A DNA stretch of 64,000 nucleotides from assembly GCF_001677475.2 (NCBI RefSeq), contig NZ_CP015229.1; one strand, given 5' to 3'. Positions 34,669 to 36,223 of this stretch are shown here, piece by piece. The notes below the pieces were generated by a model. It saw only the letters and a program-made list of their open reading frames with translations. It did not search any database and was not told the origin of the DNA. Made by a program: the position numbers and the translations under genes. Every line of letters starts with the position of its first letter. The stretch's first letter is position 1. This DNA is from Escherichia coli. Lineage in GTDB: Bacteria; Pseudomonadota; Gammaproteobacteria; Enterobacterales; Enterobacteriaceae.

Positions 34669-35170
34669 CTATGACCCGTAATCGTGCTTAACGTTACCAT
34701 CCTATGATGCGATTAAAAAAACTCACCGTCGCGCTGATGATTGACGTCAATGCTATCGGATGATACCGGGGTGTTCCGGAAGGAATTCCTTGTTTCCCGA
34801 ACTGTTACCCACAAAATTATAACGACGAGCAAGTAAAGACCGGTTGGTGGCAGCATTGAACGGTCTGTGATGGATGTTAAATTTCACCTTAAATCCTGGT
34901 GCTGTTAGGATGCTGACGTTTTTCGGGTACACCATTCAGATTATGCAAATAAATATCTCTGAATATAATATATTCATAGCACCCATAATTCATCCTGGGC
35001 GATAACTAAACCATTTTTGAGTAATAAATGAAACAACTGCAACGCTCTTATTATTTCTGGAAAACGTCTCGCAAAAACAAAACAACATGCAAAAATCCGC
35101 TTTCGTTAATTAATTTTCCGGCGTAATTTTCGCACATACATTAATGAGTAATATATGTAAGGTATTGGTA

Positions 35171-35389
35171 ATGGCGATGAATACGGTTTTTCTTCATTTA
35201 TCAGAAGAGGCAATTAAACGGCTGAACAAGCTTCGGGGCTGGCGTAAGGTTTCACGATCTGCAATTTTACGCGAAGCGGTAGAGCAATATCTGGAGCGGC
35301 AGCAATTTCCGGTGCGTAAGGCAAAGGGTGGCAGGCAAAAGGGGGAGGTAGTTGGTGTTAACGATCAGTGTAAGGAGCATAAGGAATGA
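35171..35389 (+). CDS. yiiE: Ribbon-helix-helix (CopG-like) protein YiiE
   Basis: 72 aa from ATG at 35171 (MAMNTVFLHLSEEAIKRLNKL...). Confidence 0.7.
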   Translation: MAMNTVFLHLSEEAIKRLNKLRGWRKVSRSAILREAVEQYLERQQFPVRKAKGGRQKGEVVGVNDQCKEHKE

Positions 35390-35606
35390 CAAAAATTTTT
35401 CATTCTTGAATATAAAAAACAGATGCCCTTATTCTGGTATTAATACAAGGCTGTTTTACTTGAACTTATAATAACTGCAACTGTTACATCATATCTGGAA
35501 AACGCCTCGCAAAAATAAAAAATGATGCGTAAATGAGCTTTCTTTAAAGGTTTTGCAAGAGTATTTTGCTCACCATGCATTCAAAAATGATATACTGGAG
35601 GTATAT

Positions 35607-35849
35607 ATGAGCGCTATGGCAGGTATGGATATGGGCAGAATTTTACTCGATTTATCCGATGAGGTGATTAAGCGACTTGATGATCTCAAAGTGCAGCGCA
35701 ATCTTCCTCGCGCAGAGCTATTACGAGAAGCTGTAGAACAATATCTGGAAAATCAATCGAAAACGACAATATCCAGTGCTTTTGGTATCTGGCAAGGGTG
35801 TGAGGAAGATGGTGTCGAATATCAGCGTAAGCTGCGTGAGGAATGGTAA
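35607..35849 (+). CDS. yiiF: Ribbon-helix-helix protein YiiF-like, probable VapB-type antitoxin
   Basis: 80 aa from ATG at 35607 (RBS TGGAGG); a 72-aa version would start at 35631; RHH motif paralogous to YiiE; stop overlaps the start of the PIN gene (TAATG). Confidence 0.7.
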
Positions 35850-36223
35850 TGGCAAAAAGAACTGCGCTTTTTGATACCAATATCCTTATCGATTTGTTCA
35901 GCGGACGAATTGAGGCAAAACAGGCTCTGGAGGCATGGCCCCTACAGAATGCGATTAGTCTGGTCACATGGATGGAGGTGCTGGTTGGCGCAAAAAAATA
36001 TGATCAAGAACATCGCACACGGATTGCAATGAGTGCGTTTAACGTTATTGGGATTTCGCAGGATATCGCGGAACGAAGCGTTGCTTTAAGGCAGGAGTAT
36101 AGAATGAAACTTCCAGATGCCATTATTCTGGCAACAGCACAGATTTATGGCTTTGAACTGGTAACGCGAAATACGAGAGATTTTGCGGGAATAGCAGGTG
36201 TCGTCACACCCTATGAGCTGTAA
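35849..36223 (+). CDS. PIN-domain ribonuclease toxin (VapC-like)
   Basis: 124 aa; N-terminal ALFDTNILIDLF with the conserved first acidic residue, further Asp/Glu at PIN positions; TAATG coupling to the upstream RHH gene. Confidence 0.8.
   Translation: MAKRTALFDTNILIDLFSGRIEAKQALEAWPLQNAISLVTWMEVLVGAKKYDQEHRTRIAMSAFNVIGISQDIAERSVALRQEYRMKLPDAIILATAQIYGFELVTRNTRDFAGIAGVVTPYEL

Follow-up and report, generated by a model that had tools for sequence, protein, structure and literature searches.

This analysis concerns two small ribbon-helix-helix (RHH) genes, yiiE and yiiF, and the 124-aa open reading frame (ORF) that follows them in a 64,000-nucleotide stretch of an Escherichia coli chromosome (contig NZ_CP015229.1, assembly GCF_001677475.2; hereafter the window). 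To judge from sequence homology, yiiF and the 124-aa gene are the vapB and vapC of a type II toxin-antitoxin (TA) module of the VapBC kind, orthologous to the pair crystallised from Klebsiella pneumoniae. Very probably this intact module stands beside a decayed duplicate of itself, in a locus where an ancestral vapBC was duplicated in Escherichia and toxin genes were lost later. The vapBC module is already known, both from the crystallised orthologue and from RefSeq annotation, and is no new kind of system. What is added here is the ancestral vapBC, the duplication of the whole module in Escherichia, the repeated loss of the toxin, the K-12 relic filled with repetitive extragenic palindromic (REP) sequence, the hybrid genes and a conserved block of DNA upstream.

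The earlier note on this DNA, made from the letters alone, had read yiiF as the antitoxin of an intact VapBC module, joined by a TAATG to a PIN-domain ORF in the classic VapB-VapC arrangement, and this reading was borne out. The coordinates place one base in common between the yiiF stop TAA and the vapC ATG. Residues 7-116 of the 124 match the PIN domain (Pfam PF01850, E 4.9e-19). In an alignment of 15 sequences (14 orthologues and the Shigella VapC), to which a pairwise check was added, no variation is seen at the acidic active-site residues D9, E43 and D90, and D111 is conserved too but for an E in the Shigella VapC; the window's protein has all four of these residues, on which the note had let its PIN assignment depend. 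The closest solved relative of VapC is chain B of 7BY2/7BY3, 'Ribonuclease VapC' (80% identity, E 8.7e-63), while YiiF matches chain A of 7BY2 over its full length (E 3.6e-37) and also 2K5J, the nuclear magnetic resonance structure of YiiF (E 5.7e-39). We take the 7BY2 complex to be the VapBC that Kang et al. reported from K. pneumoniae in 2020 (J Med Chem 63:13669, pmid 33146528; cited in PMC11117207). YiiF has the layout of an antitoxin, DNA-binding at its N-terminus and toxin-binding at its C-terminus, to judge from its matches to the VapB of 7BY2 and to the RHH structure 2K5J. RefSeq and its Prokaryotic Genome Annotation Pipeline (PGAP) name a gene identical to vapC (100% at the nucleotide level) 'type II toxin-antitoxin system VapC family toxin' (WP_001129490.1). 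Purifying selection on vapC is evident from the ratio of nonsynonymous to synonymous rates (omega), which comes to 0.16 when another Escherichia allele is the partner and to 0.08-0.09 with Citrobacter and Salmonella.

By analogy with other modules of this type, VapC would be a Mg2+-dependent endoribonuclease that arrests translation, and the C-terminal tail of VapB would wrap around it and block its active site. The operon would be repressed by the RHH dimer of VapB, on its own or as part of the VapBC complex, and the likely site of this repression is a candidate operator, ATATAC-N5-GTATAT, a conserved inverted repeat that covers the ribosome-binding site. Translation of the toxin would be coupled to that of the antitoxin by the TAATG overlap, and the toxin would be freed by proteolysis of VapB. 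That VapC inhibits growth and is neutralised by YiiF we infer solely from the 80% identity to the crystallised complex.

The first RHH gene of the tandem is a paralogue of the second, YiiE and YiiF being 45% identical over 73 aa (E 3e-15), and its homologues are restricted to Escherichia and Shigella. The note had proposed that a gene and its upstream region were duplicated in tandem; the two units are indeed collinear, and the duplication reaches further than proposed, in that relics of vapC follow yiiE. The 5' piece of the relic reads ATGACAAAAA..TTTTTCAT or, in a longer reading, ATGACAAAAA..TTTTTCATTC..AATAT, and past an internal deletion there is a 3' piece, CAGATGCCCTTATTCTGG...TTGAACT, which corresponds to the PDAIILA...FEL region of vapC. 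An 18-mer of the relic matches vapC at 17 of 18 positions, with none of 1000 shuffles as good, and the collinear 3' piece has a z of 7.4. Longer relics are held by sequence type 131 (ST131) and E. fergusonii (MTKRVVLINSNVLS against Vap[15 protein letters not shown]; EHKINMPDAFILASIRL against EYRMKLPDAIILATAQI). Because of the 17/18 nucleotide match, the collinearity and these longer relics in other strains, a second vapC very probably stood behind yiiE. The relics thus indicate that the duplicated unit consisted of the upstream block, vapB and vapC, and that the toxin of the first copy was lost. Between the two units the identity is 75% in the block, 58-61% in the RHH coding sequence and 49% in the promoter-proximal DNA. 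Homology to the left of about 35033 was rejected, the identity there (37%) being at the level of chance.

Selection has not treated the two halves of YiiE alike. In codons 1-46, which encode the RHH domain, the nonsynonymous rate (dN) is about 0 and the synonymous rate (dS) 0.07-0.36, even in comparison with E. fergusonii, whereas in codons 47-72, the former toxin-binding tail, omega is mostly 0.4-1.4 between divergent alleles. Because the RHH domain is constrained while the tail drifts, YiiE appears to have been retained as a DNA-binding protein. Hybrid yiiE::yiiF genes, in which the RHH domain and promoter of yiiE are joined to the tail of YiiF at the common LREAV-QYL segment, were found in an E. 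albertii-labelled genome and in some E. coli. In the former the hybrid is followed by an intact vapC, 96% identical to that of the window, so the antitoxin swapped its RHH domain yet kept the YiiF tail ahead of the toxin gene; in the latter the vapC behind the hybrid is decayed. Published hints at regulators of yiiE, in K-12 data, are limited to three: it is listed as a target of SlyA in systematic evolution of ligands by exponential enrichment (SELEX), it is induced 2.5-fold on SlyA overproduction, with table codes that appear to mark H-NS binding, and the RpoS holoenzyme gives a weak SELEX peak between yiiD and yiiE. The yiiE and yiiF genes of K-12 also fit a well-described class, the orphan antitoxins left by degraded TA modules (PMC7354431). 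It is conceivable, though we would put it forward only tentatively, that YiiE and the K-12 YiiF are domesticated antitoxins, kept for a regulatory role or, in line with the 'anti-addiction' idea, to guard against incoming vapBC elements.

Outside Escherichia, a scan of one genome per species gave 21 vapB-vapC loci. In these loci vapB and vapC overlap as they do in the window and run towards fdhE; the genera are Citrobacter, Klebsiella, Salmonella enterica subsp. diarizonae, Pseudocitrobacter, Superficieibacter, Phytobacter, Trabulsiella and Kosakonia. The identity of YiiF to the vapB products of these loci is 73-91%, but 67.5% in Kosakonia. The overlap of 1 nt between stop and start is kept in all 21 orthologous loci, and yiiE is absent from all 21. 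Since vapBC is single and without yiiE in the other genera, and YiiE is confined to Escherichia and Shigella, a lone vapBC adjoining fdhE is, as far as these comparisons tell, the ancestral arrangement in Enterobacteriaceae, and the duplication of the whole module apparently took place only in Escherichia.

Within E. coli the toxin gene is rare. Over at least 80% of its length vapC was found in 56 of 5426 complete genomes, and in about 650 further genomes only its last 55-59 nt are left; the strain of the window is one of the approximately 1% of E. coli that have the complete module. The deletions differ among strains. In CB7453 another deletion of vapC has left a short spacer, and in MS10711 a deletion fuses the block ahead of yiiF to the 3' end of vapC. 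A segment inside vapC, GAACTGGTAACGCGAAAT (36157-36176, coding ELVTRN), resembles the upstream block CTGGAAAACGCCTCGCAAAA (35494-35515), and the MS10711 deletion joins exactly these two; their likeness may be a chance microhomology.

The note had also held that K-12 has no VapC-type toxin, and that the same PIN gene at this position in K-12 would tell against its reading; K-12 proved not to carry it. RefSeq lists only yiiE and yiiF in K-12, followed by a spacer of 330 nt up to fdhE, and in this spacer nothing is left of vapC but its two ends, the first ~10 nt (ATGGGAAAAA) and the last ~55 nt, around REP-type repeats. The 3' end can still be recognised at the protein level (EVVTRNTRD-----GVVTPYEL, E 8.8e-7). 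The filler of 236 nt contains GCCGGATGCGGCG...CGCCTTATCCGGCCTAC, which we take to be REP. It matches at least 40 places per genome in 5425 of 5426 genomes, and is therefore considered a dispersed REP-type repeat; REP sequences and bacterial interspersed mosaic elements are short palindromes scattered between genes in many copies. Of the genomes, 3430 contain at least 80% of the length of the K-12 type of filler. With vapC reduced to its two ends, the yiiF of K-12 is an orphan antitoxin. Its omega is 0.37, against 0.03-0.04 for yiiE and fdhE, and its product is 10-13 residues further than the YiiF of the window from every outgroup VapB; its last 21 residues are identical to those of the window's YiiF.

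Several results weigh against the account given so far. The relic in the window is short, and its match at the protein level (E 2.0) is not significant by itself. Among the genomes and contexts of divergent YiiE-like proteins, no intact vapC was found linked to a full yiiE, just hybrids or relics. A simple sigma-70 scan gave no promoter on the + strand and did not call the TATTTT that we propose below as the -10 element. VapC did not reach the NCBIfam cut-offs of the TA_toxin_VapC equivalog (NF047959, 28.9 against 80) or of the tRNA(fMet)-specific VapC families (NF047863, 29.0 against 140; PRK13725, 19.8 against 143), and being so far under them its RNA target is not inferable from the family. 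The repeated loss of vapC in E. coli, moreover, suggests that it is dispensable or costly. These losses, by several different deletions and in 99% of E. coli, and the fact that PADLOC gave no defence-system match for the locus, would also suit a vapC that is no longer a working toxin, with yiiF acting only as a transcription factor and the pair being a fossil that is intact by chance. However, the four active-site residues are all kept, omega is as low as 0.08-0.16, between Escherichia alleles too, the reading frame and the stop/start overlap are unbroken, and the K. pneumoniae orthologue was reportedly found to be an active ribonuclease (Kang et al. 2020). We therefore regard a fossil pair as quite improbable, and continue to read the pair as a complete vapBC module.

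Comparison with known systems places the module most closely beside the K. pneumoniae VapBC (7BY2/7BY3), whose VapC is 80% and whose VapB is ~79% identical (the latter by tblastn, full length). The two loci have in common the RHH and PIN proteins, the stop/start overlap, the place beside fdhE, the upstream block and the inverted repeat; in Klebsiella, however, the module is single, whereas Escherichia has an additional decayed copy upstream (yiiE) and has lost the toxin in most strains. The CopG-family proteins YiiE and YiiF of K-12 and Shigella, of unknown function, are encoded at the same locus and are 98.6% and 80% identical to those of the window; K-12 differs in having vapC only as a 5' stub and a 3' end around REP-type repeats, and a faster-diverging YiiF. 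FitAB of Neisseria gonorrhoeae consists of an RHH antitoxin and a PIN toxin bound to an inverted-repeat operator. The window pair has the same RHH and PIN architecture, and a palindromic operator close to the operon start would be expected of it too, but no close sequence kinship to FitAB is detectable, and the operator here is predicted only. The VapBC/MvpAT of Shigella flexneri pINV and Salmonella LT2 (tRNA-fMet-specific, 3TND) have the PIN fold and the same four catalytic positions, but their VapC is only ~28% identical to that of the window (NCBIfam 19.8 against 143), so the tRNA-fMet target is not transferable from MvpAT to the present toxin. The antitoxin of MvpAT is of the AbrB type, not RHH. 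In the searchable full-text literature we found no paper that pairs yiiF with VapC. The practical value of the comparison lies in annotation, as two long-standing 'y' genes of K-12 gain an origin: yiiF, the structure of which has been solved, is an orphan VapB beside the wreck of its own toxin gene, and yiiE a still older duplicate with selection left on the DNA-binding domain only. The locus also offers a compact natural series on the duplication and decay of TA modules, which runs from the intact module through toxin-deleted alleles and RHH-swap hybrids to the REP-filled relic.

The DNA upstream of the two RHH genes contains the repeat that the note had described as near-duplicate stretches of about 75 nt. 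The repeat is real: at an offset of 438, 55 of 73 positions agree (75%), where shuffles give 20.6 +/- 3.7 (z 9.3). The register given was, however, off by 2 nt; at an offset of 440 only 30 of 75 positions agree. The core, TCTGGAAAACG[T/C]CTCGCAAAAA, is identical at 21 of 24 positions between the copies, and its degenerate pattern occurs exactly 2 times in the window, where 0.07 would be expected. When the 220 nt upstream of vapB from the 21 species were aligned with both window copies, three conserved islands emerged. The first is the block itself, TCTGGAAAGCGGCTCGCAAAAG, which 20 of the 21 vapB loci outside Escherichia have conserved, the copy in Kosakonia being degenerate; overall it is kept in at least seven enterobacterial genera. 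Its start lies 110-113 nt before the ATG at vapB in the other genera and 113-115 nt before it at both window genes, and the DNA between block and ATG diverges with almost no insertions or deletions (indels). The 22-nt block is an older cis-element that was carried along in the duplication.

The other two islands lie near the gene. Island 2 is GTGTAnnTTG, with an invariant TAnnnT inside it that gives the tentative -10 element (Table 1). Island 3, TGATATACTGGAGGTATATATG, is almost invariant across the genera and includes the inverted repeat ATATAC-N5-GTATAT. In the copy at yiiE this inverted repeat is degenerate, and the beta-strand of the RHH domain is different there too (TVFLHL against RILLDL). 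By its place and shape, both usual for an RHH operator, ATATAC-N5-GTATAT is the best candidate for the operator of VapB or VapBC.

In the earlier note it was instead the repeated block that was suggested as an autoregulatory operator, and in an extended form it could be a distal operator of the RHH antitoxins that loops to the proximal inverted repeat through a VapB-VapC oligomer. The block is the best-conserved non-coding element (21/24 between the units and nearly invariant in 20 of 21 vapB loci), it stays 110-115 nt away from the ATG although the DNA between them has diverged, without indels, and CTGGA is common to the block and the proximal element TACTGGAGG. However, the block has no dyad symmetry and no clear direct-repeat symmetry either. 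It is almost the same before yiiE and yiiF despite the beta-strands TVFLHL and RILLDL, whereas the proximal repeat has diverged, and it lies farther from the genes, ~110-115 nt upstream. It also occurs 141-142 nt ahead of an unrelated operon of a 103-aa gene and a helix-turn-helix (HTH) gene, in E. coli of the B2 group, the E. albertii-labelled genome, E. fergusonii and Pseudocitrobacter, and this operon has a palindrome of its own, ATGTACG-N7-CGTACAT. The operator suggested in the note does not hold up against these findings, and even with looping we consider it unlikely. Most likely the block would be the site of a factor common to both units and to these operons, centred some 70 bp ahead of where transcription probably starts. 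A more far-reaching proposal, that it is a novel cis-element and serves as the site of some host co-regulator or as an insertion site of cassettes, goes together with the domestication of the antitoxins considered above, and we hold it to be possible but doubtful.

A sigma-54 (-24/-12) promoter of each operon was weighed as another role for the block. An invariant TGG...N...GC stands at exactly the -24/-12 spacing (TGGAAAGCGGCTCGCA against TGGCACG-N4-TTGCA), with 4-5 variable nt in between. With a position weight matrix (PWM) built from 50 sites obtained by chromatin immunoprecipitation sequencing (ChIP-seq; PMC4591121, Table 1), however, the blocks scored 1.7-5.3 bits (Kosakonia -0.2) against at least 7.9 bits (median 15.8) for real sites, and within the window the two blocks ranked 182nd and 315th. 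In K-12, where the blocks are identical, no sigma-54 ChIP-seq peak and no RpoN peak in genomic SELEX (gSELEX) is reported there. The spacing fits, yet the score is too low and the K-12 peaks are missing; a sigma-54 promoter was therefore rejected as hardly credible.

It is also conceivable that the block is not a transcription signal, but a recombination or insertion point for small TA cassettes in the hotspot between fabY and fdhE. In Pseudocitrobacter vendiensis, an insertion of 1145 bp has the block on either side as a direct repeat of 19 nt without a mismatch (locus L008, 2497-2515 and 3642-3660); the insertion encodes a RelE/HigB-like protein of 103 aa and an HTH protein of 96 aa. In Escherichia and Pseudocitrobacter the block stands ahead of up to three different small TA-like operons of the hotspot; those of Escherichia are successive and always in the same orientation, and the MS10711 deletion joins the block to the similar sequence within vapC. 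On the other hand, neither the annotated nor the called genes of these loci included a recombinase or integrase. Genera that are free of insertions keep the block as a single copy whose distance from vapB does not vary, and this speaks for a role in the expression of vapBC. Ordinary events driven by homology can account for the duplications, and the eight exact matches that the block has among 2.9 million viral contigs have the look of chance or coding matches. We accordingly give little credence to an insertion point, and favour a binding site of a common factor.

The viral matches also led us to reject the block as a widespread mobile or phage element, for the 8 matches stand in five unrelated contexts, none with RHH, PIN or fdhE; several look coding by eye, and the rough chance expectation is ~3. 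A sigma-70 promoter inside the block was rejected as well, as the would-be -10 is not conserved (by eye) and the scan gave no + strand promoter. Sites of LexA, CRP, FNR, PurR, Cra, MetJ, SlyA, sigma-E, sigma-32 and FecI, compared by eye with the block, do not fit the conserved positions of the block. A small ORF over the block can be set aside too: one of 9 codons is confined to C. youngae, and by eye the positions that vary are not those of codon wobble. A structured RNA leader or a known RNA family was likewise dismissed: Rfam gave no match at E <= 1 in 34500-36400, and RNAalifold predicted no pairs in 20 aligned leaders.

Table 1. Features of the yiiE-vapBC locus. Plain coordinates are those of the window; coordinates preceded by L refer to loci of other genomes.
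Feature	Position	Strand	Remarks
604-aa ORF between fabY and yiiE	32681-34495	+	614 aa if from the TTG at 32651
Upstream repeat, copy 1 (before yiiE)	35033..35105	+	core TCTGGAAAACGTCTCGCAAAAA at 35056-35077
yiiE	35171-35389	+	72-aa RHH (CopG-type) protein, tandem paralogue of vapB/yiiF; RefSeq-annotated yiiE
Relic of a second vapC (putative)	35386..35471	+	start codon overlaps the yiiE stop (ATGA)
Upstream repeat, copy 2 (before yiiF/vapB)	35471..35543	+	core TCTGGAAAACGCCTCGCAAAAA at 35494-35515; orthologous to the block of other genera
Candidate -10 TATTTT (tentative)	35562..35567	+	TAnnnT inside GTGTAnnTTG; T73, A74 and T78 invariant in 20 sequences
Inverted repeat ATATAC-TGGAG-GTATAT	35590..35606	+	perfect 6-nt arms, 5-nt spacer; spans the Shine-Dalgarno GGAGG and abuts the yiiF ATG
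yiiF = vapB	35607-35849	+	80-aa RHH antitoxin (predicted), C-terminal toxin-binding tail
vapC	35849-36223	+	124-aa PIN-domain toxin (predicted), translationally coupled to yiiF (TAATG)
fdhE	36260-37189	-	convergent neighbour, anchor of the locus; vapBC-fdhE synteny common to other genera
yiiE::yiiF hybrids	L086 2501-3093; L087-L089 2501-2725		E. albertii-labelled genome GCA_032538365.1 and some E. coli

The gene order around the module, fabY, a 604-aa ORF, yiiE, yiiF, the 124-aa ORF, the convergent fdhE, fdoI and fdoH, is that of an Escherichia chromosome. The 604-aa ORF, yiiE, yiiF and vapC are covered by an island of low GC content at ~32300-36000 (34-46%, against 52-56% in the flanks). The 604-aa ORF gave no sequence match in Pfam, NCBIfam, PADLOC or the PDB, and its close homologues are only 'hypothetical proteins' of E. 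coli and Shigella; its distant relatives (21-38% identity) have in common an invariant G-C-K-S-A-K-D-R-T CX5R loop. An AlphaFold2 model of the protein (predicted local distance difference test, pLDDT, 85; predicted template modelling score, pTM, 0.86) has Salmonella SopB as its top solved structural match (8JZL, E 5.6e-7, probability 1.00), followed by the Legionella phosphoinositide phosphatase entries 4JZA and 4FYF, which are presumably SidP and SidF, and its AFDB50 matches include many named SopB, IpgD or PI(4,5)P2 4-phosphatase. The ORF looks like an unannotated phosphoinositide phosphatase of the SopB/IpgD type. K-12 retains just 32 of its codons. RefSeq/PGAP splits the open frame into a 'hypothetical protein, incomplete' and a 'transposase' in E. 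coli 2016C-3878 (L103, 1333-3147) and also in L002 and L085, and UniProt labels fragments of it 'Transposase' or 'IS600 ORF2'. The 2016C-3878 frame, 574/605 identical to that of the window when translated, has no internal stop, so the 'transposase' split is an artefact of annotation.

In other Escherichia (L083, L084, L086-L094) the fabY-fdhE interval is a hypervariable hotspot of small TA-like pairs, with a HigB_toxin and HTH pair, a 103-aa and NadS/HTH pair, a 70-73-aa and 92-aa pair, a DUF6708 and 246-aa pair, and an alpha/beta hydrolase among its contents. The hydrolase gene is divergent from vapB, in other genera as well as in the Escherichia alleles that retain it, and CTGTATGGATATACAG, a LexA box of consensus type, lies ~20 nt ahead of its start (L009 3571-3586, L086 631-646, and equivalents elsewhere); no LexA box was found anywhere in the window. 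The box is followed by a conserved TATA(A/G)C, which could equally serve a rightward promoter towards vapB. Elsewhere in the window, strong matches to the sigma-54 motif lie on the - strand at 13662 (CTGGCGTAATTGTTGCA, unassigned), at 15227 (TTGGCACAGTTTTCGCT, resembling glnAp2) and at 37652, where CTGGCGCGAATTCTGCA inside fdoI is the published intragenic site IS47.

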